Origin: an uncultured Verrucomicrobiota bacterium
GTDB lineage: Bacteria > Verrucomicrobiota > Verrucomicrobiia > Limisphaerales > UBA8199
Assembly (NCBI GenBank): GCA_964653485.1
Contig: CAZZFF010000019.1
Coordinates: 1,219-65,218 of the forward strand
Direction of reading: 5' to 3'
Length of the DNA: 64,000 nucleotides
Below the pieces are notes generated by a model. The model saw only the letters and a program-made list of their open reading frames with translations, had not been told where the DNA came from and ran no database searches. Numbering within the stretch: position 1 is the stretch's first letter; each line of letters opens with the position of its first letter. Position numbers and translations under genes: made by a program. Of the stretch, positions 27,743-42,131 are shown in pieces.

Positions 27743-28735
27743 TCATAATCCCGCGACGGATGGCCGGGCCACGGTGATGGGGGCGGTGTGGAAAAAGTCT
27801 TCCGCGCGTCGCCGGAGGTCCTCCAGGGACAAGGCCCGTGCCAGGTCCACGTTGAATTGGTGGCCGAACTTGAAATTGGCCGCGTAGTACTTCGTAAACA
27901 TTTGCAGCCGCCGCAAGGCCGCGGCGGGCGGGAAATCCTCTGTTATATTCTGGTACATCCTGGCCCAGATGGCCGCGAGGTCCACACATCCAGGCCGGCC
28001 CCAGGTGGCAAAGACCCAGGGGCGGACCACGGCCATGCGTCCAAGCATGACCGCGCTCACGGACTGGAAATCGCCCGCCCGCGTTGACACCGCGTCCGGG
28101 CCGCTCAGGTCGCCATTAGCGATGAGCGGCAGACGGGTCAAAGAGGCCGCCCAGGGGAATATCTCGTGACGGGCTCGGCGCTTGAGTTTTTCTTCGAAGA
28201 ACCGCGCGTGCAGGATCACGGCATCCACTCCGCCGTCCTCGATCTGCCGCAACCGTTCCACAAAGGCTGGTTGCCATTCCGGGCGCTGATGCCCAAGCCG
28301 GATTTTGGCGGTGAGCATGTGTGGCCAGAGTTTCCGTACTTTGTGGAGCACGGCGCGCAAATCGTCGAGGTTCTCGAATAAGGCGCTGCCTGCCGCGTGG
28401 GAGCGAATCGATCTGGCGTTGCAGGCGAGGTTCAAGTCCAGGGCATCGGCTCCGGCCTCGCCCAAGCGGTCCACGATCCGTTCCAGCGGGTCCGCGGCGC
28501 TCACCATGAGTTGATAGACCAGGCAGCCTTCCTGCGGGCGGCGGCGCAGCCAGGGTGAGGTCTTGAAGTTCTCGCACAGGATTTGCCGGGCCGCCAGCAT
28601 CTCGGTCCACAGGGCGCCACAGCCCCCCAAGTCCGCTACCAGCCGCCGGAAGGCGCTATGCGTGTAACCCGCCAGCGGGGCGCAAAAGCGCGCCGGGGCG
28701 AAACGCCGGCCCCGGATGACACATTCATCGAACAT
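27743..28735 (-). CDS. tRNA-dihydrouridine synthase family protein
   Basis: APLAGYTHSAFRRL, LDLNLAC, GSAL, TAKIRLG, ILHAR, IANGDL, VMLGR. Confidence 0.88.
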   Translation of the reverse strand: MFDECVIRGRRFAPARFCAPLAGYTHSAFRRLVADLGGCGALWTEMLAARQILCENFKTSPWLRRRPQEGCLVYQLMVSAADPLERIVDRLGEAGADALDLNLACNARSIRSHAAGSALFENLDDLRAVLHKVRKLWPHMLTAKIRLGHQRPEWQPAFVERLRQIEDGGVDAVILHARFFEEKLKRRARHEIFPWAASLTRLPLIANGDLSGPDAVSTRAGDFQSVSAVMLGRMAVVRPWVFATWGRPGCVDLAAIWARMYQNITEDFPPAAALRRLQMFTKYYAANFKFGHQFNVDLARALSLEDLRRRAEDFFHTAPITVARPSVAGL

Positions 28736-28850
28736 CGCCGACGATGAACAACCGGGCGGGCTCCGCGGCCACCGCCCGCCGCTCTTCCACGCTCACCCGG
28801 GCGTCGGAGGCTCTGACTCTAGCTAAGCTCATGAAGCAACCCTATCCGCC

Positions 28851-30452
28851 TTGAAACCAAAGGGCAAAAACAAATCCCGTGGATTGGTCCTTGAAATCGG
28901 GGGGGACTTGCGCCACAACCCCATCGTGTCCATGAGTCCACCTGCAAGAAAGCGCCGGCGTTGGTTGAGAATTCTCGTTTGGTGTTGCGGGGCGGTCTTG
29001 GCGGGCTTCGCAGCGTTGGCGGCGCTGCTGTTGGTTCTCCTGAGCCGCGTTCCGAAATACTACCCGCCGGTCGCTCATCCAATAGAAATCGCCCGCGGCT
29101 TCGGGTCGGACACCGATTTGGAAGGCTTTGCCTCCCCTTACATCGGGCACACCGGCAGTTGGGACGGCAAGGGCGGCGCGATATTCGGCGGTTCAAAGGT
29201 CCCCGACCTGGACACGGACCAGGCGATGCACCTGCGCTGGACCTTCATGGCGGCGTACTGGAGGGCGCTGGAGCCTGGCGGCCCGGTGGACCTGGCAAGA
29301 GAGACTCCCGCGGCGTGGAAAGAGATGGACGCGTTCCTGGCGGCCGCCCACGCGCGGCGCCTGAACATCCTGATGCAAGCCCCGGTGGTCGGGGGCAATG
29401 CCGGAGGTCCGCCGAAATGGGCCGGCCGCCGTGAGGAGGGCAAGTCAGCGCCCGCCAATATGGAGGCGGCCGCGGCGTTCGCGGGTAAGCTCGCGGCCCG
29501 CTATGCCCCGGGCGGGACGTTGGCCAGGGAGCGGGGGTGGGGCGCGAAGTTCGGCGTGCGCGCGTGGGAACTCGACAACGAGCCGGATGGCTACCTGACA
29601 CACTGGAAGGGCCAGGCGGCCGATTATGCGGAATTTGTCACCAAGGTCGCGGCGGCCATTCGCCGCGAGGACCCGCGCGCGGTCATTCTCGGGCCTGGCA
29701 CGATGAGTTCGCGCAATGCCTGCCGATGGATTGAAGGGGCCTTGGACGCGGCGGCCCTCAACGGGTCGCCGGCCTACCGCGTCAGAGGGACGGCTTACTC
29801 GATTGGACCGGTATTGGACGCGGTTTCCTTTCATGTTTACGAGGGCTTGGATAGCGCCTTCTCCGGCGGGGATCGCACCGTGGAAGTCGTCTTCAGCGAA
29901 ATCCGGGGTCTCTTCGAGCGGTATGAAGACCGGTCTCCGAGGTTCCATTACGCAAGGAAAGAGCAATACTGGCATACCGAAGGCAACTTCGATTTTTTCG
30001 GGGTCCTGTCCAGGGAGCGGCGCGCGGCCTGGCGCATTCAGTTCTTCACCCGCGCCTTTGCCGCCGGGATTTCCAAGGTGGTCGTCATGGATGCCTCCAA
30101 ACCGGAGCAAGCCGCCGTCCGCGCTTATGTTGACGCCCTGCCTGACCCGTTTCCGATGCGGCGGGCCGGCGACAAAGTGAAAGTGGTGAGCGGAACCCCG
30201 GCCGTCTTCCTGCATTTGGACAGCACCAATGCGGACGCCGGTCGCGTGTGGGTCTTGTGGGCCACGGGCCAAGGCGGCGCGGAAGTGGACGTGCCCGCGA
30301 TACGAGCGCGCGTCATGCAAGTCTCCGCCGATGCCAGCCGCCTTCCGCTCGAAAGCCCCGGTCACACGGTGAGGGTCCGCCTTAAAGGCGACGCGAAGAT
30401 GGCGCCTCCGGTGCTGGTCATTGACCGGGAAAGGCTGTGGGGCTCCGATTAG
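28851..30452 (+). CDS. Membrane-anchored clan GH-A glycoside hydrolase (GH5/GH39-like)
   Basis: N-terminal TM; WELDNEPD acid/base motif, SFHVY, YWHTEGN nucleophile-like motif; start may be ATG near 28930. Confidence 0.75.
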   Translation: MKPKGKNKSRGLVLEIGGDLRHNPIVSMSPPARKRRRWLRILVWCCGAVLAGFAALAALLLVLLSRVPKYYPPVAHPIEIARGFGSDTDLEGFASPYIGHTGSWDGKGGAIFGGSKVPDLDTDQAMHLRWTFMAAYWRALEPGGPVDLARETPAAWKEMDAFLAAAHARRLNILMQAPVVGGNAGGPPKWAGRREEGKSAPANMEAAAAFAGKLAARYAPGGTLARERGWGAKFGVRAWELDNEPDGYLTHWKGQAADYAEFVTKVAAAIRREDPRAVILGPGTMSSRNACRWIEGALDAAALNGSPAYRVRGTAYSIGPVLDAVSFHVYEGLDSAFSGGDRTVEVVFSEIRGLFERYEDRSPRFHYARKEQYWHTEGNFDFFGVLSRERRAAWRIQFFTRAFAAGISKVVVMDASKPEQAAVRAYVDALPDPFPMRRAGDKVKVVSGTPAVFLHLDSTNADAGRVWVLWATGQGGAEVDVPAIRARVMQVSADASRLPLESPGHTVRVRLKGDAKMAPPVLVIDRERLWGSD

Positions 30453-30583
30453 AGGCTTGAGACCCGCGGCCCGCCTGCGCAGCGTATTACAGTTTGCTTC
30501 TCTTGGCGCATGAGACCAACGGCGGCACAGGCGAAAAGCCTGCCGCCCTTCGGAGATTGGCGAGATGGACACAATGACCACAA

Positions 30584-30624
30584 GATGCGTGATTTTCACG
30601 CGGAATGCGTGAAAATCACGCATC
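30584..30624. promoter_or_regulatory. Perfect 18-bp inverted repeat whose arms are each a palindrome GCGTGA-N3-TCACGC
   Basis: gatgcgtgattttcacgc-ggaat-gcgtgaaaatcacgcatc read directly; upstream of the LuxR-type gene. Confidence 0.7.
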
Positions 30625-30840
30625 CTCACAGCGGCAAGGATAAGGAACATGCGGATTTGCCGGGGTTTCGTGTTTGGCACCGGAAATGCTGGTGTTTCGC
30701 CGTTACCTCGGTTCGCTGCGGATTCATCTTTGATGAATCCCTGGCGCCCCTGTGTAAAGGCAGTGCAGTTTGGTCCTTTTGGAGCATGAACTCGACGGCG
30801 ACAGAGTCGAAGAGACGGCCCGAGGGCACGGGCCGCGCGC

Positions 30841-31611
30841 GTGTGTGGCAGGGTGGGATCCAGCGCTTCTGCGAGGGCTGGGGTTGTCGCGTCTGCACTC
30901 CGGATCCGGCGGCCGAGATGGGCCGCGTACCGCGGGGGGGGGGGGGAGGGCGTTGCTGTCGTTGGAGGCAACGCGAGGGTGCGGTCGGTGGTCCTCGAAG
31001 CGGTCGCACGGTTGCCCGGGTTCCAGAGCTGCACCCTCTTTGCAACGGGCGCGGAGGCTATCAGGCTCCTGCCGGGCCTGGAAGTGGAAATCGCCCTCGT
31101 CGCGCTGACTCTCCCGGACCTCTGCGGCATCAGGTGCGGCAGAGAGTTGCGCACCCGCAAACCCGGCCTCAAGGCCGTCCTGATCGTCTCAGCGGAGGAA
31201 TGTGCGCTCGCCGGCCATGCCATGGCAAGCGGCTTTGATTACTGCCTTGCGCACCCGTTCGACACGGGCCGCTGTGTGGAGACGCTCCTCTTCGTTTCGG
31301 CATGCCAAGCTCGCAGGCCTGGGACGTCACTGGGCCATCCAGGGCCATGCACCCGGTCCTTCGCCTCGTCCGGGCTGACGCGTGAGGAGGATCGGGTGAT
31401 GGCCTGCCTTGCTCAGGGTCGGTTCTACAAGGAAATCGAGGCTGACCTCGGGTTTAGCAGGGCGAAGGTGTGCCGCCTTGTGCATAGCTCGTACACCAAA
31501 CTCGGCGCTCAGAAGGCCACTGAAGCGGTGGAGAAGTGGCGGCGGTCCAGCTCGCCGCGCGCGAGCCAAGGCGCACTTGCAGCCGGAGGAGAAGGAGGAG
31601 GAGCACTTTGA
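30841..31611 (+). CDS. LuxR/NarL-type regulator with degenerate (pseudo-)receiver; 5' end crossed by a G13 tract
   Basis: [11 protein letters not shown] (acidic pair lost), [14 protein letters not shown] (phospho-Asp replaced by Ala), C-terminal [29 protein letters not shown]. Confidence 0.75.
30934..30946 (+). repeat. G13 homopolymer
   Basis: 13 consecutive G between c30933 and a30947. Confidence 0.95.
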
Positions 31612-32534
31612 CAACGCTGAGAAGAAGCGCATATCGCGGCGATCGAAGGGGTTTGCCTCCTGGCGCGGCCGCGCCAGGGGGCCGGAGCCGCCGCGCCGGC
31701 GGCGGCGCCGCTTGCCGTCCGTCCAGGCGCCGGGCGCCTGCGGAGGGCGGGCGGGCGGCGTTTACGCTTGTCGAGTTGCTTGTGGTGATCGCCATCATCG
31801 CCATTTTGGCCGCGCTCCTGCTGCCGGCCCTGGCCAGGGGGAAGGCCAAGGCCTACCGAGCGGTTTGCTCGAGCGACCTCTTGCAGATGGGCCAGGCGGC
31901 GAACATGTATGCCGCCGACAACCGCGATTTCATGGCCTGGCCAAATTGGCAGACCCTCGGCGCCGTTTCTCCGGAGCCTGACCCCTGCGGCCCGCCGGTC
32001 CATCCGATGGGCGGCTGGCTCTACACTCCCGGCGTCCCGCCCGACCCGACGGTCAGCCCGTACAGCGCCAACCCGATTGCCGCCTGGCAGCAGGGGCTTT
32101 GGTTTCCGTACCTGCGCACCCCGGGCGTTTATCTGTGCCCCGTGAGCCTGAGGAGCCAGTACTACGCCCAGCGTATCAACAAGCTGTGCGGTTACCTGAT
32201 GAACGGAGGGGTCTGCGCCTTTGGACAACTGTACTTGCAGAGGGCCCCCTCGCCCACGTGGAGGACGAGCGACATCTGGAGCCCGATGTGCTGGCTGTTG
32301 TGGGAGCCGGATGAGAGCCTGGGCCAGCCGCCGGTGGGCGGCTACGCTTATGCTGACGGCAGCGTTTATCCGGACCAGATGACCGCCCTGACCCGGAGTC
32401 ACGGCCCCGGTGCGGACATCCTCGCCTTGGCCGGCCACGTCCAGTTCGTCCACCTCAACCAGTTCGCCGCCGAACAAACTAACAGCGCCCGGGGGCTGCT
32501 CTGGTGGAATCCTGGAACAGCCAGCGGGCGCTGA
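31608..32534 (+). CDS. Prepilin-type N-terminal cleavage/methylation domain protein (pseudopilin-like)
   Basis: [35 protein letters not shown]; GGAGGAGGAG RBS and TTG 31608 overlapping the upstream TGA. Confidence 0.88.
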
Positions 32535-32548
32535 ACGAACACTCAACC

Positions 32549-34615
32549 ATGAAATCCCTCCTCTATGGCTCAGCCCTCCTGGCCCTCGCGTACCAGGCGT
32601 TAGCCCAGACCAACGATCCGCTTGACCAATGGCAGTCGTATGACCCGCTGCCGAGCAATTTCCTTGGCAGCGTTGCTTTTCTCAACGGGCAGTTTTGGGG
32701 TGTTGGCGATGGCACCGTCTGGGCATCCCAGGACGGCACTAACTGGGCTTGCTCCGGCCTCCTCCCGATGGACGGGCCTTTCGCGATCGCCTACGGGAAC
32801 GGCACCTACGTGGTCGTGGGGATCGTCCAGACTGTTGCCGGCATGAACTACTCGGGCGGGCTCATCGCGACATCCCCGGACGGTGCCGCCTGGACCGCCC
32901 AGCAGGGCCCCCTGGGCTACGCCATTGGGAATGGTCCGGCGGGTCTCTGGTTGCCCATCTTTAGTCCAGGCGCCAGCCCCATCGCTTTCGGGAACGGGGT
33001 CTTTGTCGTGTGGGTCGAACTCGAGGACGGCACTGTGGCTGTCCTGACCTCGCCCGACGGCATCCAGTGGGCCATTCACGAGTTCGGGGACACGGCCCTC
33101 GTAAAGGACATTACGTTCGGCAACGGCATTTTTGCGGCGCTGGCCAGCGACGCGAGTGGCAATTATCGTCTCATCACGTCCGCCGACGGAGTGCTCTGGA
33201 CGCCGCACCCTTCTCCAGTCGGCCCGGTGCCATGTTTGGGCTACGGGGGCGGTTCATTCATCGTCTTGGGCGGCGGGTCAACTGTAGATGCCGTCGCGAC
33301 CTCCACAAACTGCGCCGCCTGGACGACCAACACGGTTTCCTGGCCATTTCGTGATTCTCCCTGGGACGTCGCTTATGGAAACGGGCTGTTCGTCGCCGCG
33401 TGTTCGGGCGGCGGCGTCGCGGTATCGGCCAACGGCATCGCCTGGGCGGATTCCGGCTTCGCGGCGTTGAGCGACGTGATGGGTGTCTGCTATGGCAAGG
33501 GCGCGTTTGTCGCGGTCGGCCCCGGACCGCCGGCGGTGTCGACCGACGGCGTGAGGTGGGACCAACCGGCGCCGGTGGCTGACCTTTGGATCAACGGGGT
33601 CGTTTATGCTAGGGACAGGTTCGTCGCCGTTGGCTGCGAGGGCTTGTGGAGCCCTTACAACGGCGTCGGCGTCATTTTCGGCTCGGCCGATGGGATGCAC
33701 TGGAGCGTGGCCCACCCGGTCGTGGAGGGGCTGATGTCGGTCGCCTATGGGAACAGCCTTTTTGTGGCCGCCGGCGGCAGCAACGTCGTGACATCCGCCG
33801 ACGGCATCAGTTGGGCTCCTCAGGCCCTCGGCGGGGCGGCTTCCATCCAGAGCGTTGCCTACGGGGAGGGCCAGTTCGTCGCTGTCGGCGGGGCCATCCT
33901 CACCTCGACTGACGGCGTCCACTGGCTCCAGCGGAATCCAGGAACCAACGTGGGCCTCGCGCAAGTCGTCTATGGCAACGGCGCTTTTGTCGCGCTGCTT
34001 GACGCGCCAGGTGGGGCGGTGCTTGCCTCCCCGGACGGCGTGGCCTGGACGCTGCAGAGCTCCGGCACGACCGACCAGCTTCTGGGGCTGTGCTACGGAC
34101 AGGGCGTGTTTCTGGCTGTCGGCAACCAGACCGTCCTCACCTCCACCGATGGCGTTCATTGGTCCGCGCCGGGCTCGAGCCCCCCCTGGTCGGGCGAGGT
34201 GGTGGGACCCGCCTATGTACACGGGATGTTCGCCGTCTGCAGCGGTGGCGGCTTCTTCACATCGACCAACACCGTCGACTGGGTCCTCCACGACACGGGG
34301 TGCGGCTGCAGGCTCACCGGCTTGGCATTCGGCGGGGCCACCCTCGTTGGGGTGGGGGAGTCCGGCAGAGTTGTGCAATCTGGCACAATGACCTCGTGGC
34401 CCATGCGCCTCGCGCCGCTGCCGTGGCGGGGGACCGGTCCCTTTCAGATCACGGTCGCCGGGCCTGCTAATCACAACTGGGAAATAGACGCGTCCAGCGA
34501 CCTCTTTGGCTGGGCCCCGCTCGCAAATCTCTGGAGCACGAACGGCGTGATCACGCTCACCGATCCCGGGGCCCCGCATCAAGCCCGCCAGTTCTACAGG
34601 GGCGAGTGGTGGTGA
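32549..34615 (+). CDS. Secreted BNR/WD40-YVTN-like beta-propeller repeat protein, copy 1
   Basis: Signal MKSLLYGSALLALAYQALA; repeated VAYGNG.FVAVG...LTSPDG..W units; C-terminal ...DASSDL..W..L.N..STNG..TDP....FYR domain. Confidence 0.88.
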   Translation: MKSLLYGSALLALAYQALAQTNDPLDQWQSYDPLPSNFLGSVAFLNGQFWGVGDGTVWASQDGTNWACSGLLPMDGPFAIAYGNGTYVVVGIVQTVAGMNYSGGLIATSPDGAAWTAQQGPLGYAIGNGPAGLWLPIFSPGASPIAFGNGVFVVWVELEDGTVAVLTSPDGIQWAIHEFGDTALVKDITFGNGIFAALASDASGNYRLITSADGVLWTPHPSPVGPVPCLGYGGGSFIVLGGGSTVDAVATSTNCAAWTTNTVSWPFRDSPWDVAYGNGLFVAACSGGGVAVSANGIAWADSGFAALSDVMGVCYGKGAFVAVGPGPPAVSTDGVRWDQPAPVADLWINGVVYARDRFVAVGCEGLWSPYNGVGVIFGSADGMHWSVAHPVVEGLMSVAYGNSLFVAAGGSNVVTSADGISWAPQALGGAASIQSVAYGEGQFVAVGGAILTSTDGVHWLQRNPGTNVGLAQVVYGNGAFVALLDAPGGAVLASPDGVAWTLQSSGTTDQLLGLCYGQGVFLAVGNQTVLTSTDGVHWSAPGSSPPWSGEVVGPAYVHGMFAVCSGGGFFTSTNTVDWVLHDTGCGCRLTGLAFGGATLVGVGESGRVVQSGTMTSWPMRLAPLPWRGTGPFQITVAGPANHNWEIDASSDLFGWAPLANLWSTNGVITLTDPGAPHQARQFYRGEWW

Positions 34616-34757
34616 GCCGGAATCTGCACGCGACGGCTGGGACCCAGCCCTCTTGCCGCTCTCGGGCGCCAGACCGGCGGAGGGCAAGGCTGGAGCAACC
34701 GTTGCACAAGCATTTCGCGTGCCGCTTACGGTAACGGCTTGGGGAAGATTTCTTCTT

Positions 34758-34786
34758 TTGCAGCTTCTGCTGTGCGGCGCTACAAA
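34758..34786 (+). promoter_or_regulatory. Sigma70-like promoter, copy 1 (TTGCAG-17-TACAAA)
   Basis: Aligned with the better-matching copy at 37320-37348. Confidence 0.5.
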
Positions 34787-34917
34787 AGTGGCCGTTGCTT
34801 TGGTATCCAGGTCCGGGAGGCCTGATGCTTCGGGAGCCAAGTGGCAGCTTTGCCCTCGGAGGGCAGGCAGACGCGAGTGAACATGATCGCACGCGAACAG
34901 ATAACTTGAAACAAGCT

Positions 34918-34965
34918 ATGAAGACCTCGAACGAAACGGCCGGCGCTGAGGCATTCCCGCCCTAG
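34918..34965 (+). pseudogene. Truncated 5' stub of the Cys-rich protein gene (MKTSNETAGAEAFPP*)
   Basis: 14 of 15 residues identical to the N-terminus of 37480-38514, then TAG at the duplication junction. Confidence 0.85.
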
Positions 34966-35070
34966 CCAGCCACGTCCAATTCGTCCGCCTCAACCAGTTC
35001 GCCGCCGAACAAACTAACAGCGCCCGAGGCCTGCTCTGGTGGAATCCGGGAACAGCCACCGGGCGCTGAG
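34966..35070 (+). pseudogene. Orphan 3' end of a pseudopilin gene
   Basis: Encodes [32 protein letters not shown], matching the end of 31608-32534. Confidence 0.85.
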
Positions 35071-35083
35071 CAAGCACTCAACT

Positions 35084-37177
35084 ATGAAATCCCTTCTCTA
35101 CGCCGCGGCGCTCCTGGCCCTTGGGGGCCAGGTCCTTGGCCAGACCAACGATCCGCTTGACCATTGGCAGCGGTATGATCCTGCGCCGAGCAACTTCTTT
35201 TCCAGCGTTGGTTTTCTCAACGGGCAGTTTTGGGGCGTTGGCTGTGGTACTGTCTGGGGATCGCAGGACGGCACTAACTGGGCGTGCTCCGGTTTCGTCC
35301 CCATGGATGTACCCTTGGGCATCGCGTATGGGAACGGCACCTACGTGGTCGTGGGAGAGGACGGTTACGACCCCGAGCTTGACGGGACGGCAGGCCTTAT
35401 CACGACCTCGCCTGATGGAGTCGTCTGGACCGCTCAGTCTGGGCCGCCCGGGTACTCTGTCTTCGGTGGACCAGCAGGCTTTTGGTTTCCCGAGGCCGGT
35501 CCCGATGGCAACGCGGTCGTTTATGGCAACGGCTTGTTCGTCGTGGCGGTCACGCTGGAGGATAGCACTCCCGCCTTCCTGACGTCGCCGGACGGTGTCC
35601 AGTGGGCGATCCAGACCTTCGGAGACATCCACGCTATCTCGAGCCTTATCTTCGGCAATGGTCTGTTCGTAGCACTGGGCTATACGGGTGACTTCGGCGC
35701 CGGCGGCCAGAGCTTCCTGTTGACGTCCCAGGATGGGCAGCTTTGGACGAAGCACGCGGGCGGAACTGGGGGCTGGCTTGACTGGGTGGGCTACGGCAAC
35801 GGCACCTTCGTGCTTGGGAGCGGTTTAGGGCAGCTCCAGGCGGTCGCCGCATCAACCGACCTCCAAACGTGGACGACCAATGCGGCCCAGGGCACCGCCG
35901 GTTTCTACCCGGGTTCCATTGCCTATGGGGACGGAGTGTTCGTTGCCGCGGGCGGCGCGGGCGCCGTCTGGACTTCGCCGGACGGTCTTCAGTGGGCGAG
36001 CCACGACTCGGGCATATCCAATACCTTGTATTCCGTCGCCAACGGAAACGGGGTTTTCGTGGCCTCCTCGCGGTCGCCACCCGTCACGTCGAGCGATGGG
36101 GTCCACTGGACGGCGGCCAAGCCCGCGATCCCCGTAAGCATGTACGATGTCGTCTTTGCCCGAGGCCGGTTCGTGGCGGTCGGGCAGCAGACGGGCTCAT
36201 CAGCAGACTATCCCAGCCAGGGCGTAAGCATGACCTCGACGGACGGCGCCCACTGGAGCATCGCCTACACTGGGACCACGCAGTGCCTCAGTGTGGTTTA
36301 CGCTGATGGCCTTTTTGTAGCGGTGGGCGGCGACCAGGTTGTCACCTCGCCGGACGGGCTGAACTGGACCCCACGCGTCTCGGGCACTGCAAATTCCATC
36401 CAGAGCGTCGCTTACGGGAACGGCCTCTTGGTGGGGGTCGGCTGGAGTGGCACCGTCATCACCTCGACCAACGGCACCGACTGGATTTCGCGTAATCCGG
36501 CAACCAATGTTAGCATGATGCAGGTCGTTTACGGGAACGGCGTCTTCGTTGCGCTCTGGGAGAGCCAGGACGGCTCCATCCTCGTCTCGACCAACGGCGC
36601 GGACTGGCAGATCCGGGACTGCGGGGCAACCGATTGGGTCTGGGGACTGGGCTCCGGCGATGGGATGCTCTTCGTGGTGGGAAGACAGTCCCTTCTGGTG
36701 TCAACCAACGGGAGCGATTGGTTCACACTTGGATCCGGCATCTTCCCCTGGTATGACACCGGAAACCTTAAATACGCCCACGGGACCTTTCTCATCGTCT
36801 GCGGGTCGGGGGACATTTACGCCTCGACGAACGCGACGGACTGGGTGCTCCACAACACCGGTTGTGGCCAAGACCTATCTGGCTTGGCGTACGGCAACAA
36901 CACCTTCGTAGCGGTGGGAGAGGGTGGCACCATACTCCAGTCTGCCCCCACTCCTTCATGGCCTCTGCAACTTGCGCCTTCGGGTGTGCCCGGGCCAAAC
37001 GGATTTTCCCTCACCGCCTCCGGCCCCGCCGGGCACAACTGGGAGATTGACGCGTCCAGCGATCTCCTTGACTGGGCTCCGCTCGCAAATCTCTGGAGCA
37101 CGAACGGCGTGATCACGGTCACCGATCCGGCGGCCACAGCCTGCGCTCGCCGGTTCTATCATGGTCAGTGGTGGTGA
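35084..37177 (+). CDS. Secreted BNR/WD40-YVTN-like beta-propeller repeat protein, copy 2
   Basis: Paralogue of 32549-34615: same signal, repeats and C-terminal domain. Confidence 0.88.
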   Translation: MKSLLYAAALLALGGQVLGQTNDPLDHWQRYDPAPSNFFSSVGFLNGQFWGVGCGTVWGSQDGTNWACSGFVPMDVPLGIAYGNGTYVVVGEDGYDPELDGTAGLITTSPDGVVWTAQSGPPGYSVFGGPAGFWFPEAGPDGNAVVYGNGLFVVAVTLEDSTPAFLTSPDGVQWAIQTFGDIHAISSLIFGNGLFVALGYTGDFGAGGQSFLLTSQDGQLWTKHAGGTGGWLDWVGYGNGTFVLGSGLGQLQAVAASTDLQTWTTNAAQGTAGFYPGSIAYGDGVFVAAGGAGAVWTSPDGLQWASHDSGISNTLYSVANGNGVFVASSRSPPVTSSDGVHWTAAKPAIPVSMYDVVFARGRFVAVGQQTGSSADYPSQGVSMTSTDGAHWSIAYTGTTQCLSVVYADGLFVAVGGDQVVTSPDGLNWTPRVSGTANSIQSVAYGNGLLVGVGWSGTVITSTNGTDWISRNPATNVSMMQVVYGNGVFVALWESQDGSILVSTNGADWQIRDCGATDWVWGLGSGDGMLFVVGRQSLLVSTNGSDWFTLGSGIFPWYDTGNLKYAHGTFLIVCGSGDIYASTNATDWVLHNTGCGQDLSGLAYGNNTFVAVGEGGTILQSAPTPSWPLQLAPSGVPGPNGFSLTASGPAGHNWEIDASSDLLDWAPLANLWSTNGVITVTDPAATACARRFYHGQWW

Positions 37178-37319
37178 GCCGGACAGGTGCCGAGCGCCCC
37201 GCGCTAGCTCTGTTGTCGCTGTCTGCGGCGCCAAGCCGGCGCGGGGCAAGGCTGTAGCAAGTGCTGCACAAGCATCTCGCGTGCCGCATACGGTAACGGC
37301 TGGGGGAAGATTTCTTCCT

Positions 37320-37348
37320 TTGAAGCCTCTGCCGTGCGGCGCTATAAA
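37320..37348 (+). promoter_or_regulatory. Sigma70-like promoter of the Cys-rich gene (TTGAAG-17-TATAAA)
   Basis: Near-consensus hexamers with 17-nt spacer about 130 nt upstream of ATG 37480; conserved in the duplicated copy. Confidence 0.6.
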
Positions 37349-37479
37349 AGTGACCCTTGCCTCAGGATCCAGGCTCCGAAGGCCTGATGCTTGGGGAACC
37401 AATCGGCGACTTTGCCCTCGAAGGGCAGGGAGACGCGAGCGAGTATGATTGCACGCGAACAGATAACTTGAAGCAAACT

Positions 37480-38514
37480 ATGAAGACCTCGAACGAGACG
37501 GCCGGTGCCGAGCCATTTCCACCCTCAACCCGCCGGGATTTCCTCCAGAAGGTCACGAAGTCCGTCCTTGGCGGCGGGCTGCTTATCGGCGGTGTTGGCT
37601 TGCCGACGGCTGCGCTTGCAGGTGGTGGCTGCACGCACTGCGACACGACCCTTGACAGCACTTGCAACAACACGTACGCATGCACGAGTCTGAACGCTTG
37701 TGGCTCGAACCAATGCAACACCGCGGACGGATGCAGCGTCACCGATAGCTGCTTGTACAACAATACGTGCCAAGTGACCAACGCTTGCGGCGTCGACACG
37801 TGCGAGACCAACAACAATTGCCAAGCCCCCGGCGGCCTCTCGGGCAGCGACACATGCACGAGCAACGTATGCACTTCCTACGACCTTTGCTCCACTAACA
37901 CGTGCATCAACACCGACGCTTGCACCACCACCGGGGGCAGCCAGAACCAGTGCTACGAGCAGGACACTTGCGAGGCCAGCAACACCTGCGGCACAGATGT
38001 GTGCGGTGCGGTCAACTTCTGCACGTCCTGGAACAAATGCACCAGTGACGATGAATGTGTGAATTACAACCTGTGCAGCTCCTATAACTACTGCGTCAGC
38101 CGCGAGGTCGGCACACTCGGGTGCCAAACCGACACGTGCAAGGCGTCCAACTACTGCGGCGGGGACGACCCGTGCTCTACGAACTCCTGCGGAATCTCGA
38201 ATACCTGTGCGGACGATAGTTGCTTGGCATCAAACAACTGCGCTGGCATCAATGATTGCGGGGTTGATACCTGCTCTGGCGCCACCTACGGAAACTCGTG
38301 CTTCAGCGATGCCTGTCAGTCCAGCGATTCATGCATTGGCACGGCCGGCAACTCCTGCACCACGGACACGTGCGGGACGGACTCTTGCGGCCACTCGAAC
38401 ACCTGCATTTCCAGCGACCGGTGCATGACGCTGGACGATTGTATGTTTAACATCTGCGATTCCTTCAATATATGCAATGGGATCAACACGTGCTCGAGCA
38501 CTAACAGTCCATAA
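37480..38514 (+). CDS. Tat-signal, 48-Cys periodic repeat protein of unknown function
   Basis: STRRDFL Tat motif and AALA cleavage site; mature part has Cys every 5-6 residues, 43 of 48 preceded by N/D at -2. Confidence 0.9.
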   Translation: MKTSNETAGAEPFPPSTRRDFLQKVTKSVLGGGLLIGGVGLPTAALAGGGCTHCDTTLDSTCNNTYACTSLNACGSNQCNTADGCSVTDSCLYNNTCQVTNACGVDTCETNNNCQAPGGLSGSDTCTSNVCTSYDLCSTNTCINTDACTTTGGSQNQCYEQDTCEASNTCGTDVCGAVNFCTSWNKCTSDDECVNYNLCSSYNYCVSREVGTLGCQTDTCKASNYCGGDDPCSTNSCGISNTCADDSCLASNNCAGINDCGVDTCSGATYGNSCFSDACQSSDSCIGTAGNSCTTDTCGTDSCGHSNTCISSDRCMTLDDCMFNICDSFNICNGINTCSSTNSP

Positions 38515-38515
38515 C

Positions 38516-39520
38516 GCGGGTAGCCGCTACGGAGGAACTCCGCTCGCTGGTGATTGAGCAGCCCGAACTGCTGATCGCGCAAGGGACTGCCATTGGCGCA
38601 AAGGCTTTTGCGGTTGGCGTGCAGAGCGTAGTCGATTTCCTCCAACAAACGCCGGACCGTGTTCGGACAGACGCGCAAACCCAAGTGCGCCAGTTCGGAA
38701 CTGATGCTGCGTAACCGTTTGCCAGTCCACAAGCCGTGCTTGCCCATCGGATCCCCGGCGGTGTCCTCCCGCAACAAGGCTCGGAGCCGGCTCAAGATTT
38801 GGGGCGTTTTTTTTCCACAGCCGGTCGGCCGCTCCCCGGCTGCCGAACCCGCCCTCGCAGCACCTGGCCGCTGAGCAACTCGCGCTCCGCACGGGCGATG
38901 GTGTCCACATCCAGCCCGAAGCGCTCTGCCGTTCGTTGCTGACCTCCGTAGCCGCACTGCAAACTCTCCAAGCCGGCGTAAAGTCGCCGCTGCTTTTCGT
39001 CCAGCAAGCTATAGAACAGCGCTTTGGCCGCCGGCAGGTCGTCGCCCGCCTCTTGCTGGGCCTGCCGCTGGGCCCACTGCTCCTGTCGTCGCGCGCGATC
39101 CAGGGCACAATACAGATAACGGCCTTCCCACTCCCGCCGGAATAGCCGCCCGGCCTCCACCAACTGGCGCAGCGCATCCTTGGCCGCGACGTGAACCACT
39201 GCCTCCAGTTCCGGCACCTGATAGCCGGCGGCAGACTGTGTCACCAGCGCCTCCGCCGTGTTCAACAACGTGCCCCGCCGCGAGAAACGAACATCGCGGC
39301 AGGACCACAGCCCCAGCTCATCGTAGTGCGCGATGGAATCGAGCGTGAAATACGTGCCGCCATGGGAATAGCTGCTCCGGTAGCCCAAGGGCGAGAGCTT
39401 GCGCAAGACCGTATACGTGACGCAGGTGCCCAAGGCCTCTTTGAGTTCCGGCATGGTGGCGACTTTTTGGTCGTTTAAAAGGCCGACCAGCTTCTCAGCC
39501 GGATAGTGAACGACATTCAT
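38516..39520 (-). mobile_element. Truncated ISAzo13-family transposase (two frames joined at an A8 slippery run; DDE domain missing)
   Basis: LDEKQRRLYAGLE...GYGGQ...GRVRQPGSGRPAVEKK, then in the next frame LLREDTAGDPMG..LWT.K.LR.I..EL...G..V...TV.RLL...YAL.ANRK...RDQQF; A8 at 38807-38814; ends abruptly at FLRSGYP. Confidence 0.85.
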
Positions 39521-39733
39521 AATGTGAACATAACGCCTTCGCGTGGGTTGTCGAGCGTCATATTCACATTTTCGACCAAAAGCGCCTCTGTGGACAAATG
39601 CATCGGCAAATGCATCATTTGCTCAGGAACTACGGGTGTCCGGAAGGCACCGCCTCAATCCTCACCGAGAACAGGTTCTCGGCATCTTGTGCGTGTGCAG
39701 CCTTAGAATCGGAAGTTGTTTATGCACGAACCC

Positions 39734-41827
39734 TTAGGGCCAGCGCAAGCGATAGAAGCGGGTCGGATAATTTGTCCACTGTGGATCGCTCAAATAAGCA
39801 GAGCCGCTCGTGATGATGTTCGTGGCAATCGGAGTCCACAAAGGATTGGCAAGATTCGTGCAGGCGTCAACTGCGACGGTCATCCCGTTGGCCCAGTCGA
39901 TGGTGAAGCCGAATTGATTGCTCCGAACGCCGAAGCTGTCATTGCTGGCCTGCAGCCGGGGGAGCCACAGCGCGACCGGAACTCCGGTGCTGGCGGATAC
40001 GTCGTCCCAGCCCGTAGTCCCAGGCAGGTAATAGAGCGTCAAATCACTGTCCCCGTCGAACACATCCTCACCAAAGCTGGGGGCGCCACCCTGGAAATAG
40101 ACTGCCGGCAGCTTGGTGCAGAAACCGAACGCCTCTTCTCCGATGTGAATGACGCTGTTGGGGATCGTGTAGCTTCCGACCTCGCCTCCCGGGTATTCAA
40201 TGAGCGTGGTCAGGTTCTTGTTGAACAGCACCCCATTCAAACTGCTGTAAGCAGGATTGTTTGTATCCACCGTGATTGCCGCCAGACTAGGGCAGTCTTG
40301 GAACACAGCCGGTCCAATGTTGGTAACGCTTGCGGGTATCGTGATGACAGGCAGGTTGGCGCAGTCGAAAAACGCATAGTCCCCGATGTTCGCGACGCCG
40401 CTGCCGAGCGAGAGATTGGCCAGTTTGGCGCAGCCATTGAACGCCCAGGGGCCAATGCTGCCGACACTGTTGGGGATCGTGACGCTGGCCAGGCCGCATA
40501 CCGAGAACGCAAAGGCCCCGATGTTGGTAATGCCGTTGCCGAGCGTGGCATTCGTCAGGCCGGCGCAGCCAGCGAACACCCCCGCACCGATGCTGGTGAC
40601 GCTGTCAGGGATCGTGAGGCTGGTCAGGCCGGCGCAATCATCAAACGCCCAGTTCCCGATGCTGGTGACGCTGTCAGGGATCGTGACGCCGGTGAGGCCG
40701 GCGCAGCCATCAAACGCCCAGTTCCCGATGCCGATCACGGTGTTGGGGATCGTGTAGCTTCCAACCCTGCCTACGGAACATTGAATGAGCGTGGTCAGGT
40801 TCTTGTTGAACAACACCCCATCCAAACTGGCATAGGCAGGATTGTTTGTATCCACCGTGATTGCCGCCAGACTGGGGCAGCCAGCGAACGGACCGGATCC
40901 AATGTTGGTAACGCTGCCGGGGATGGCGATGCCATCCAGGCCCGAGCAACCGGAGAACGCACCATCTCCGATGCTGCCGAGGCTGTTGGGAAGCGTGATG
41001 CTGGTCAGCGTGGCGCATTCACTGAACGCATCGTCTCCGATGTTAATGACGCTGTTGGGGATCGTGTAGCTTCCGGCCTGGCCTGCCGGGTATTCAATGA
41101 GCGTGGTCAGGTTCTTGTTGAACAACACCCCATCCAAACTGGCATAGGCAGGATTGTTTGTATCCACCGTGATCGCCACCAGACCAGAGCACCCAACGAA
41201 CGGACTGGGTCCAATGTTGGTAACGCTTGCGGGTATCGTGATGCGAGTCAGGCCCAAGCAATCGGAGAACGCATCGTCTCCGATGTTTATGACGCTGTTG
41301 GGGATCGTGTAGCTTCCGACCCCGCTTCCCGGGTCTTCAATGAGTGTGGTCTGGTTCTTGTTGAACAACACCCCATTCAAACCGCTGTAAGCGGGATTGT
41401 TTGTATCCACCGTGATCGCCGCCAGACTGGGGCAGTCTTCGAACGCCTCGTTCCCGATGCTGGTGACGCTGGCGGGGATCGTGACGCCAGCCAGGCTGGG
41501 GCAGTAGGCGAAGGCCATGTCCCCGATGTTGGTAACGCCATTGGGAATCGTGACGCTAGTGAGGTTGTTCAAGCTGAAGAACGCCCCGTCCCCGACGCTG
41601 GTGACGGGCAGGCCAGCGACCACGCTGGGGATGGTCACCGCCCCACCAGAACCGGTGTATGCCGTGATGGTAATCGTGCCGTTGGTGACTGCGTAATCGA
41701 ATTGGGCTCGCACCACGGCAGGCAGCGCCAACATCAACAGCAGCGGTAGAATCCATGAAACGAAGACCCGACCCACAATAGCCATTTTGACGGCCAGAAT
41801 TCCGAGCACTGTCTTAGTTGTCTTCAT
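39734..41827 (-). CDS. BspA-type leucine-rich repeat surface protein, second paralogue
   Basis: LRR_5 repeats, signal ...LPAVVRA-QFDYAVTNG, same C-terminal domain as 21809-24297; start set at ATG 41827. Confidence 0.92.
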   Translation of the reverse strand: MKTTKTVLGILAVKMAIVGRVFVSWILPLLLMLALPAVVRAQFDYAVTNGTITITAYTGSGGAVTIPSVVAGLPVTSVGDGAFFSLNNLTSVTIPNGVTNIGDMAFAYCPSLAGVTIPASVTSIGNEAFEDCPSLAAITVDTNNPAYSGLNGVLFNKNQTTLIEDPGSGVGSYTIPNSVINIGDDAFSDCLGLTRITIPASVTNIGPSPFVGCSGLVAITVDTNNPAYASLDGVLFNKNLTTLIEYPAGQAGSYTIPNSVINIGDDAFSECATLTSITLPNSLGSIGDGAFSGCSGLDGIAIPGSVTNIGSGPFAGCPSLAAITVDTNNPAYASLDGVLFNKNLTTLIQCSVGRVGSYTIPNTVIGIGNWAFDGCAGLTGVTIPDSVTSIGNWAFDDCAGLTSLTIPDSVTSIGAGVFAGCAGLTNATLGNGITNIGAFAFSVCGLASVTIPNSVGSIGPWAFNGCAKLANLSLGSGVANIGDYAFFDCANLPVITIPASVTNIGPAVFQDCPSLAAITVDTNNPAYSSLNGVLFNKNLTTLIEYPGGEVGSYTIPNSVIHIGEEAFGFCTKLPAVYFQGGAPSFGEDVFDGDSDLTLYYLPGTTGWDDVSASTGVPVALWLPRLQASNDSFGVRSNQFGFTIDWANGMTVAVDACTNLANPLWTPIATNIITSGSAYLSDPQWTNYPTRFYRLRWP

Positions 41828-42131
41828 AGGTGTCCTAATTCTGTCGAGAAGCGGCATGTCAATATCCACTCCGGCGGGTCTCAAGCCTCACCGGCATGGG
41901 CAGCACTATCCCCGGCAACCACACAGACTCTTTTTGCAACATCCACCATTGTCAAAGTTTCTTTCCAAGGGTGCAAGCCAAATCCGCCCGCCCGAAACGT
42001 GCCCACAAGGCCCCGTTCTTTATCGGACCACGCTCTGGTAATCCGTCTCGTCGTCGGCTTTCACAACGACGCGGAGGTCGGAATTCGCGGCTTTCAATTG
42101 GCGCAGTTTGTCCTTGAGGGCGGAGCTTTTT

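Follow-up and report, generated by a model that had tools for sequence, protein, structure and literature searches.

The window analyzed here is a 64,000-nucleotide stretch of contig C19 in the draft genome (G000; 6.6 Mb, 251 contigs, 94% complete) of an uncultured Verrucomicrobiota bacterium, whose nearest database proteins bear the names of Limisphaerales and Verrucomicrobiae metagenome-assembled genomes (MAGs). Positions 30584–38514 contain a palindrome pair followed by five genes, all on the + strand, coding for a LuxR/NarL-type regulator with a pseudo-receiver domain, a GspG-like pseudopilin, two exported double beta-propeller proteins, and a Cys-rich repeat protein with a twin-arginine translocation (Tat) signal. 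An earlier note on this DNA had listed these features, and all are found where it placed them. The reading favored here, with moderate confidence, is that the window holds the front half, with the regulatory and extracytoplasmic genes, of a rare cluster that occurs in several copies and probably makes a stapled, glycosylated, Tat-exported Cys-rich protein.

The Cys-rich gene (37480..38514, +) codes for 344 residues, 48 of them Cys, with a hexapeptide repeat of the form C-x-x-[ST]-[DN]-[ST]. Its leader, STRRDFLQKV...GGGLLIGGVGLPTAALA, contains an S/T-R-R-x-F-L motif, a hydrophobic stretch, and an A-x-A site, and matches TIGR01409 (TAT_signal) at 18.0 bits (cutoff 16.7). The leader is kept in 10 of the 10 family members with an intact N-terminus, and TRRDFL..GGG.LIGG is conserved across genera. 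Asp or Asn occupies position -2 of 43 of the 48 Cys residues, position +4 of 28, and position +3 of 17. Across the 11 members of the family, position -2 is Asp or Asn for 87% of 410 Cys residues, against an 18% background, and Asn is as frequent as Asp in the repeats. A word-indexed search returns no homologue, and the PDB holds no sequence relative. Among 1.84 billion sequences, a full profile search with the family finds 21 matches at E<=1e-10 and 134 at E<=1e-3, and the 21 representatives have the same leader and (D/N)-x-C repeats. The AlphaFold2 model, built on a 3-sequence alignment, has a pLDDT (predicted local distance difference test) of 30 and no fold, which argues neither for nor against the solenoid that the earlier note had envisaged. 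A paralogue on contig C174 of the same genome is only 35–40% identical to the window protein; the repeat register is nevertheless kept, and the window gene is intact. Because the D/N-x-C register persists at this level of identity, we read the window gene as one that is probably under continued selection, with a product that would be matured in trans.

The C174 paralogue is followed by a gene for a 541-residue protein, a radical S-adenosylmethionine (SAM)/SPASM enzyme with the motif CNLACIYC, a family 4 glycosyltransferase (GT4), an S41 peptidase, and a second GT4, in that order, and this enzyme set is intact. The best NCBIfam match of the radical SAM enzyme is PapB (NF047865), at 229.9 bits, under the cutoff of 340; the next-best families are nif11-type, QhpD (third, 169 bits), and SCIFF maturases. 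The 541-residue protein (L028, G000:C174:1033-2658) shows a weak SPASM domain but lacks the radical SAM core. Its gene always lies between the Cys-rich gene and that of the radical SAM enzyme, and in G412:C570 it is fused to the latter (905 aa).

The distribution of these genes was surveyed in the source genome and 40 relatives (41 in all) and, separately, in 400 genomes drawn across the phylum. The Cys-rich and 541-residue families have an identical distribution, occurring in 4 of the 41 genomes (the source genome, G401, G403, and G412) and in none of the 400. The 541-residue family forms only 19 clusters among 5.8 billion proteins. G401 and G403 belong to the same genus and G412 to another, all within one Limisphaerales-like family. 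The earlier note had asked whether its gene types ever co-occur elsewhere, and they do so in about 15 other loci, with changing order and orientation: the pseudo-receiver LuxR, pseudopilin, propeller, and Tat Cys-rich families are found together in G401, G403, G412, and independent metagenome contigs, and the ~15 loci comprise paralogous contigs, those of the three related genomes, and four metagenome contigs. The full cluster comprises the pseudo-receiver LuxR protein, a GspG-like pseudopilin, the Tat Cys-rich protein, the 541-residue SPASM-only protein, the PapB-like radical SAM/SPASM enzyme, a GT4, often a double propeller, an S41 peptidase, and a second GT4.

The arrangement varies between loci. 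In G401:C12 the LuxR gene, a palindrome pair, propeller, Cys-rich gene, pseudopilin fragment, 541-residue, radical SAM, and two GT4 genes lie on one strand. G403:C16 contains LuxR, two pseudopilin, Cys-rich, 541-residue, radical SAM, two GT4, and S41 genes, and L104, an ENA contig from a G412-like organism, contains LuxR, pseudopilin, Cys-rich (48 Cys), 541-residue, radical SAM, GT4, propeller, and GT4 genes. In G412:C280/L107 and G412:C145 the arm with the Cys-rich and enzyme genes is divergent from a pseudopilin-propeller pair. The same pattern is repeated in L105, L106, L108, and a JGI contig, all from other samples, and the same set of genes recurs in G401:C21, G403:C26, and G412:C143/C531, C42, C290, C570, and C208. 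Conserved proteins without a Pfam match (about 580–640 aa; 348 aa) follow the first GT4 in L107 (14624-17592), in L108 (5327-7069), and in the JGI 3300075153 contig.

A pseudopilin is present in ~13 of the ~15 loci, the pseudo-receiver LuxR protein in ~11, and a propeller in ~8. The two GT4 genes flank the propeller gene in L104, G412:C531, and G412:C208; in G401:C12, G412:C280, and G412:C145 its neighbor is the pseudopilin or Cys-rich gene. The earlier note had taken the step from propeller to Cys-rich gene as the ancestral adjacency. That order does recur in G401:C12, but the constant neighbor of the Cys-rich gene is the pseudopilin rather than the propeller. The source genome has about 80 pseudopilin genes, or roughly one per 80 kb, and at this density the near-constant pseudopilin adjacency is not expected by chance.

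The window itself contains no homologue of the 541-residue protein, the radical SAM enzyme, or the glycosyltransferases. In every other locus the 541-residue gene follows the Cys-rich gene. Here an ISAzo13-family transposase remnant (38516..39520, -; NF033519, E 5.6e-11, N-terminal part only) starts two bases past the Cys-rich stop codon on the opposite strand. Since this insertion sequence (IS) remnant abuts the Cys-rich gene exactly where the 541-residue gene follows elsewhere, the window holds, as judged from gene order, a truncated and rearranged copy of the cluster that retains the front half only and has apparently lost its enzyme genes. The single functional module proposed in the earlier note thus survives in part: its core gene types do recur together, but the module is larger, with the radical SAM/SPASM enzyme, the SPASM-only protein, two GT4 enzymes, and the S41 peptidase, none of which the window has. 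The transposase remnant also has a T8 tract (38807-38814), which reads as A8 on its coding strand. Elsewhere in the source genome, a second maturation cluster is degraded (C96:20170-23511 and C238), with GT4 and S41 fragments, a truncated 541-residue gene, and a Cys-rich fragment that is directly preceded by a palindrome pair.

The regulator gene (30841..31611, +) codes for a protein that matches Response_reg (PF00072) at 35.9 bits (cutoff 30.2) and GerE at 18.2 bits, under the cutoff of 23.5, and that aligns with DevR across both the receiver and helix-turn-helix domains. Relative to DevR, the phospho-acceptor Asp (D54) is replaced by Ala, the acidic pair DD by GG, and the conserved Lys by His, so that the term pseudo-receiver is correct. 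The phospho-acceptor Asp is missing from every cluster-linked LuxR protein, that is, from the whole subfamily. A G13 tract at 30934-30946 encodes Gly4, in frame from the GTG codon at 30841, and the residues after this codon align with the start of the paralogue on C202 (MCAGRMSSGASRA; M-CAGRMSSGASRA). The GTG start is therefore supported by homology and, because its frame matches the start of the paralogue, the gene is in frame as assembled; slippage at the G13 tract is possible, and the switchable regulator of the earlier note is conjectural. Its stop codon, TGA (31609-31611), overlaps the TTG start of the pseudopilin gene at 31608, as reported previously.

The pseudopilin gene (31608..32534, +) begins at that TTG and ends, as the earlier note also stated, 14 nt from the ATG of the first propeller gene at 32549. 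Its product has the prepilin-type N-terminal motif AFTLVELL with Glu5 and, at position -1 before Phe1, Ala in place of Gly, and matches PF07963 (E 8.5e-6) and TIGR02532 (25.1 bits, cutoff 16.3). The match to the GspG model TIGR01710 (41.3 bits) is under the cutoff of 88.85, and the gene lies outside a gsp operon, its neighbors being the LuxR and propeller genes. The N-terminal 100 residues are GspG-like, with residues 52-153 matching the GspG structure 5wda in the PDB (E 2e-9), and the C-terminal motif is H-X9-(A)G-H. The export genes of the genome include TatC, a prepilin peptidase, and 8 secretins. A general rule that pseudopilins stand beside any protein with the C-terminal domain ending in FYR, described below, was considered and rejected, as this is so for only 5 of 76 pseudopilins, compared with a random mean of 3.8.

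The two propeller genes (32549..34615 and 35084..37177, both +) code for proteins that are 52% identical, each with a Sec signal peptide. The first has SxDGxxW repeats, a DUF6242 match, two seven-bladed beta-propellers, and a C-terminal beta-sandwich that ends in FYRGEWW; the second has the same C-terminal domain. The AlphaFold2 model of the second (pLDDT 84) contains 14 blades in two propellers followed by the C-terminal sandwich. Its best fold match in the PDB is PorZ (5m11; template modeling (TM) score 0.56, 12% identity), and many double propellers come next. The BNR label given in the earlier note is not upheld, since there is no BNR Pfam match, only DUF6242, and the SxDGxxW repeat is one residue shorter than S-x-D-x-G-x-T-W. 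More than 6000 relatives are found at E<=1e-10, all annotated as hypothetical, and none of the 120 best propeller homologues is fused to a Cys-rich tail or a Tat signal. The C-terminal domain, ~65 residues ending in RFYR and without a Pfam model, closes 87 otherwise unrelated exported proteins of the source genome, including LRR_5/BspA proteins as well as propellers; in the window it is encoded at 34400-34615, 36960-37177, and 39734-39955. It may serve as a tag for sorting or anchoring.

A tandem duplication of ~2.55 kb spans the propeller units. Between the two propeller genes lie a remnant of the 5’ end of the Cys-rich gene (MKTSNETAGAEAFPP*; 34918..34965, +), in a region where 34660-34959 is 84% identical at the nucleotide level to 37222-37521, and a remnant of the 3’ end of the pseudopilin gene (34962..35069, +), where 34952-35251 is 84% identical to 32417-32716. 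At the joint the first 15 Cys-rich codons are fused to the last 35 pseudopilin codons. Within the duplicated units (32380-37530), the ends, comprising the signal peptide and first blade, the C-terminal domain, and the intergenic remnants, are 80–89% identical, and the propeller core is 45–65% identical. Such a mosaic suggests that the ends have undergone gene conversion or that the core has been replaced.

A similar pseudopilin-tail remnant separates the two propellers of a sister locus, L101 (JGI Ga0455670_0014322), which corresponds to the end of contig C126 of the source genome plus C171. Its order is LuxR (with a shortened receiver), pseudopilin, propeller, pseudopilin-tail remnant, and propeller; the pseudopilins of the two loci are 74% identical and the propellers 42–55%. 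L101 was rejected as independent evidence: it is 99.99% identical to C126 and hence another locus of the source organism. Short stretches at the end of the L101 contig also occur at the ends of C171, C96, and C174, a sign that the assembly graph is probably tangled at these repeats. Also in the source genome, C171 carries a propeller gene and then a pseudopilin gene.

The palindrome pair (30584..30624, no strand assigned) lies 217 nt upstream of the GTG start of the LuxR gene. It consists of two 15-bp boxes, GCGTGA-N3-TCACGC, arranged as ATGCGTGA-N3-TCACGC-N5-GCGTGA-N3-TCACGCAT, which together form a perfect 18-nt inverted repeat (30584-30601 / 30607-30624). The box pattern has 28 matches across the genome, compared with 0 for a reversed control, which is far above chance, and paired sites number 14, again compared with 0 for the control. 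In addition to that in the window, these lie on contigs C3, C4, C10, C27, C38, C41, C72, C76, C102, C146, C205, C218, C238 of the source genome. Among the 14 sites the boxes and their 20-bp spacing are conserved, and the centers, spacers, and flanks are variable. Because of this combination, the pair has the pattern of a candidate protein-binding site rather than a mobile repeat.

For at least 9 of the 14 paired sites, the gene downstream codes for a pseudopilin or for an exported protein with the RFYR/FYR C-terminal domain. The pair is also present at 6–10 copies each in G401, G402, G403, and G413, which include genomes without the Cys-rich system. The exact pair at 20-bp spacing is not found in G412, although G412 has the system. 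On the evidence of these matches, the pair is a regulon-level, family-wide motif rather than a locus-specific one, and it would mark a wider surface-protein regulon. The earlier note had called it an operator pair; a perfect palindrome pair is indeed present, but the motif is regulon-wide and also occurs in genomes that lack the system. At least three genera share the two-box palindrome. The pseudo-receiver LuxR protein is unlikely to be its only binder, because G402 and G413 have boxes but no Cys-rich/radical SAM system and G412 has the system but not the exact pair. A LuxR search of G402 and G413 gives only weak matches of canonical response-regulator length. G402:C49 has a box pair with the same spacer; it was considered as a syntenic counterpart and rejected, as it is not syntenic with the window. 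Just 5’ of the pair in the window (28851-30452) is a gene for a 533-residue membrane-anchored protein with a weak GH44-like match and no visible relation to the cluster. An Rfam scan of 28000-42000 detects no RNA family, and consensus scans find no sigma-70-like promoter and no convincing intergenic terminator.

Taken together, the cluster can be read as a maturation and export pathway. The radical SAM enzyme would staple the 48-Cys protein in the cytoplasm by forming thioethers from Cys to the near-invariant Asp or Asn of each hexapeptide, and the 541-residue SPASM-only protein may be its substrate-recognition partner. The GT4 enzymes would glycosylate many Ser and Thr residues, the S41 peptidase would trim the chain, and the matured product would leave via Tat, a route that is proposed because the product would already be rigid after its cytoplasmic maturation. 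For the window copy, the C174 enzymes would supply this maturation in trans. Once in the periplasm, the product might be received by the membrane-anchored pseudopilin or passed by it to one of the secretin systems of the genome, and the Sec-exported double propeller, with its lineage-typical C-terminal domain, might bind or anchor it at the surface. The LuxR protein, which would not be phosphorylatable, may act as the pathway regulator, and the palindrome pair would link the locus to the wider surface-protein regulon.

A bolder extension of this pathway is that the expanded H-X9-DG pseudopilins of Planctomycetota and Verrucomicrobiota are cargo-specific adaptors, one of which here takes a Tat-exported, stapled, glycosylated protein to a secretin for display, with the double propeller as its surface partner. 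We regard this extension as speculative and on balance unlikely. If true, it would provide the first functional assignment for the H-X9-DG pseudopilin family and the first protein-scale product resembling a ribosomally made, post-translationally modified peptide (RiPP) with its own export adaptor.

Several points weigh against the proposed pathway. The window has no enzyme gene, so that in-trans function of its copy is assumed. The radical SAM enzyme falls below the PapB cutoff (230 vs 340 bits), and (D/N)-x-C / C-x3-(D/N) is a sequence pattern, not proven chemistry. The propeller is missing from about half of the loci, and with ~80 pseudopilins and 87 proteins with the same C-terminal domain, some adjacency is possible by chance. 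The loci all come from related MAGs and are not independent. The window pseudopilin lies outside the clade of cluster-type pseudopilins, and no Cys-rich gene is found beside the sister locus L101/C171, with its LuxR-pilin-propeller-propeller order.

The last two points also favor a rival explanation, in which two unrelated cassettes lie side by side without functional interplay: a LuxR-pseudopilin-propeller cassette belonging to the palindrome regulon, and an orphan Cys-rich gene brought in by recombination. Consistent with this, C218 has a box pair, pseudopilin, and propeller alone, pseudopilin-propeller pairs occur without radical SAM genes in G402, G413, G423, and G412:C349/C231, and the IS remnant and mosaic duplication mark a rearranging region. 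However, the duplication joint places the Cys-rich gene 3’ of the propeller already at the time of duplication, and the same order recurs in G401:C12. The enzyme block includes the propeller gene in L104, G412:C531, G412:C208, and the JGI contig, and the pseudo-receiver LuxR subfamily stands beside Cys-rich/radical SAM clusters in ~11 loci. Two independent cassettes are thus a possible but doubtful account of the window.

A second rival concerns the product itself, which could be a periplasmic protein that binds metal or iron-sulfur, or is disulfide-laddered, and depends on Tat since it folds round a cofactor, with the radical SAM/SPASM proteins serving for cofactor insertion or another modification. 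Tat classically carries cofactor-bearing proteins, and 48 Cys residues with many Asp and Asn would make good metal ligands. AlphaFold2 gives the apo chain no fold, and CrpA of Methanococcus voltae is reported to be induced on pyrite (PMC13692751). Against this, the nearest enzyme families, PapB, QhpD, and SCIFF, are all thioether cross-linkers that join Cys to Asp/Glu/Asn-type residues, the Asp or Asn at -2 of 87% of Cys residues suits a cross-link register better than a cluster-binding motif, and the GT4 and S41 genes suit a maturation pathway. We therefore consider a cofactor-binding or disulfide-laddered product improbable. It is equally improbable that the window copy is a decaying remnant, its enzyme genes lost in an IS-associated deletion and its co-orientation only historical. 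Decay would fit the IS remnant right at the end of the Cys-rich gene, the pair of gene remnants between the propellers, the visibly degraded copy on C238/C96, and the stops or split genes found in the copies of several relatives. Against it, none of the five window genes is broken, the Cys-rich gene keeps 43 of 48 D/N-x-C registers at only 35–40% identity to its C174 paralogue, which argues for continued selection, and precursors served in trans by a distant maturase are common in RiPP systems.

The proposed stapling and export pathway has several implications. To our knowledge, radical SAM thioether chemistry was long known on short peptides only. The cluster would represent a bacterial case in which a single 300-residue chain has ~48 potential sites and a defined accessory set (two GT4, S41, SPASM-only) accompanies it, and cytoplasmic maturation would give a built-in rationale for Tat export. 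The cluster also provides the most consistent gene linkage found for two large groups, the expanded pseudopilin family of PVC bacteria and a very large family of double-propeller surface proteins, both of which become testable. For annotation, the apparently orphan Cys-rich gene of the window has enzymes elsewhere in the genome.

Comparison with known systems places the cluster more precisely. The closest enzymatic parallel is PapB, which carries out radical SAM/SPASM thioether chemistry on PapA to give freyrasin (PMC9413430, PMC12373016). PapB is the best family match of the radical SAM enzyme, and the repeated Cys with Asp or Asn at C-x3-D/N resembles the C-x3-D of PapA. The substrate differs in being a 300-residue protein with ~48 sites rather than a short peptide of <100 aa, in its Tat-signal leader, and in having Asn as commonly as Asp; the extra SPASM-only protein, two GT4 enzymes, S41 peptidase, pseudopilin, propeller, and pseudo-receiver LuxR protein set the cluster further apart, and the window copy has no enzyme. 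A substrate parallel is CrpA of M. voltae, the partner of CrpC, with the first proof, in 2026, of ranthionine cross-links on a whole Cys-rich protein (PMC13692751). Both systems pair a full-size Cys-rich repeat protein with a neighboring SPASM radical SAM enzyme, and both proteins have low-confidence predicted structures; the CrpA motif is of the C-x-x-Q/D type. In contrast, the CrpC family, TIGR04463, is not among the matches listed for the present enzyme (the best 25 of 64), the repeat is 6 residues rather than 17, and the system is bacterial, with Tat export, glycosyltransferases, and linkage to a pseudopilin and propeller. The third-best enzyme match suggests a parallel with QhpC/QhpD. QhpD links Cys to Asp/Glu by thioethers in a protein whose final location is the periplasm; QhpC differs from the present protein in being small, with 3 links, and part of an enzyme complex, and no dehydrogenase genes are present here.

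The accessory proteins have their own parallels. The pseudopilin shares with GspG of the type II secretion system (T2SS) the prepilin motif with Glu5 and the GspG-like first 100 residues, it adjoins the gene for a Tat substrate, and its genome has secretins and a prepilin peptidase. Pseudomonas PlcH is a Tat-dependent T2SS cargo. The pseudopilin differs in its place outside a gsp operon, in the Ala before Phe1, and in its large C-terminal domain of the H-X9-DG type of the expanded PVC family, and we know of no description of a cargo-linked pseudopilin. The predicted propeller architecture of two seven-bladed propellers and a C-terminal beta-sandwich is like that of PorZ from the Porphyromonas type IX attachment complex, but at 12% identity and a TM score of 0.56 the likeness is one that many eukaryotic double propellers also reach. 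The regulator can be likened, by architecture, to Streptomyces RedZ-type proteins, which are atypical, phosphorylation-independent pathway regulators of the NarL/LuxR class; it too combines a receiver fold without a phospho-acceptor pocket with a GerE helix-turn-helix and stands at the head of a biosynthetic cluster. A literature search found no paper that joins Tat, radical SAM, Cys-rich proteins, and Verrucomicrobia. The cluster belongs among the radical-SAM-modified Cys-rich protein systems, to which it adds an undescribed accessory set of pseudopilin, propeller, and LuxR proteins.

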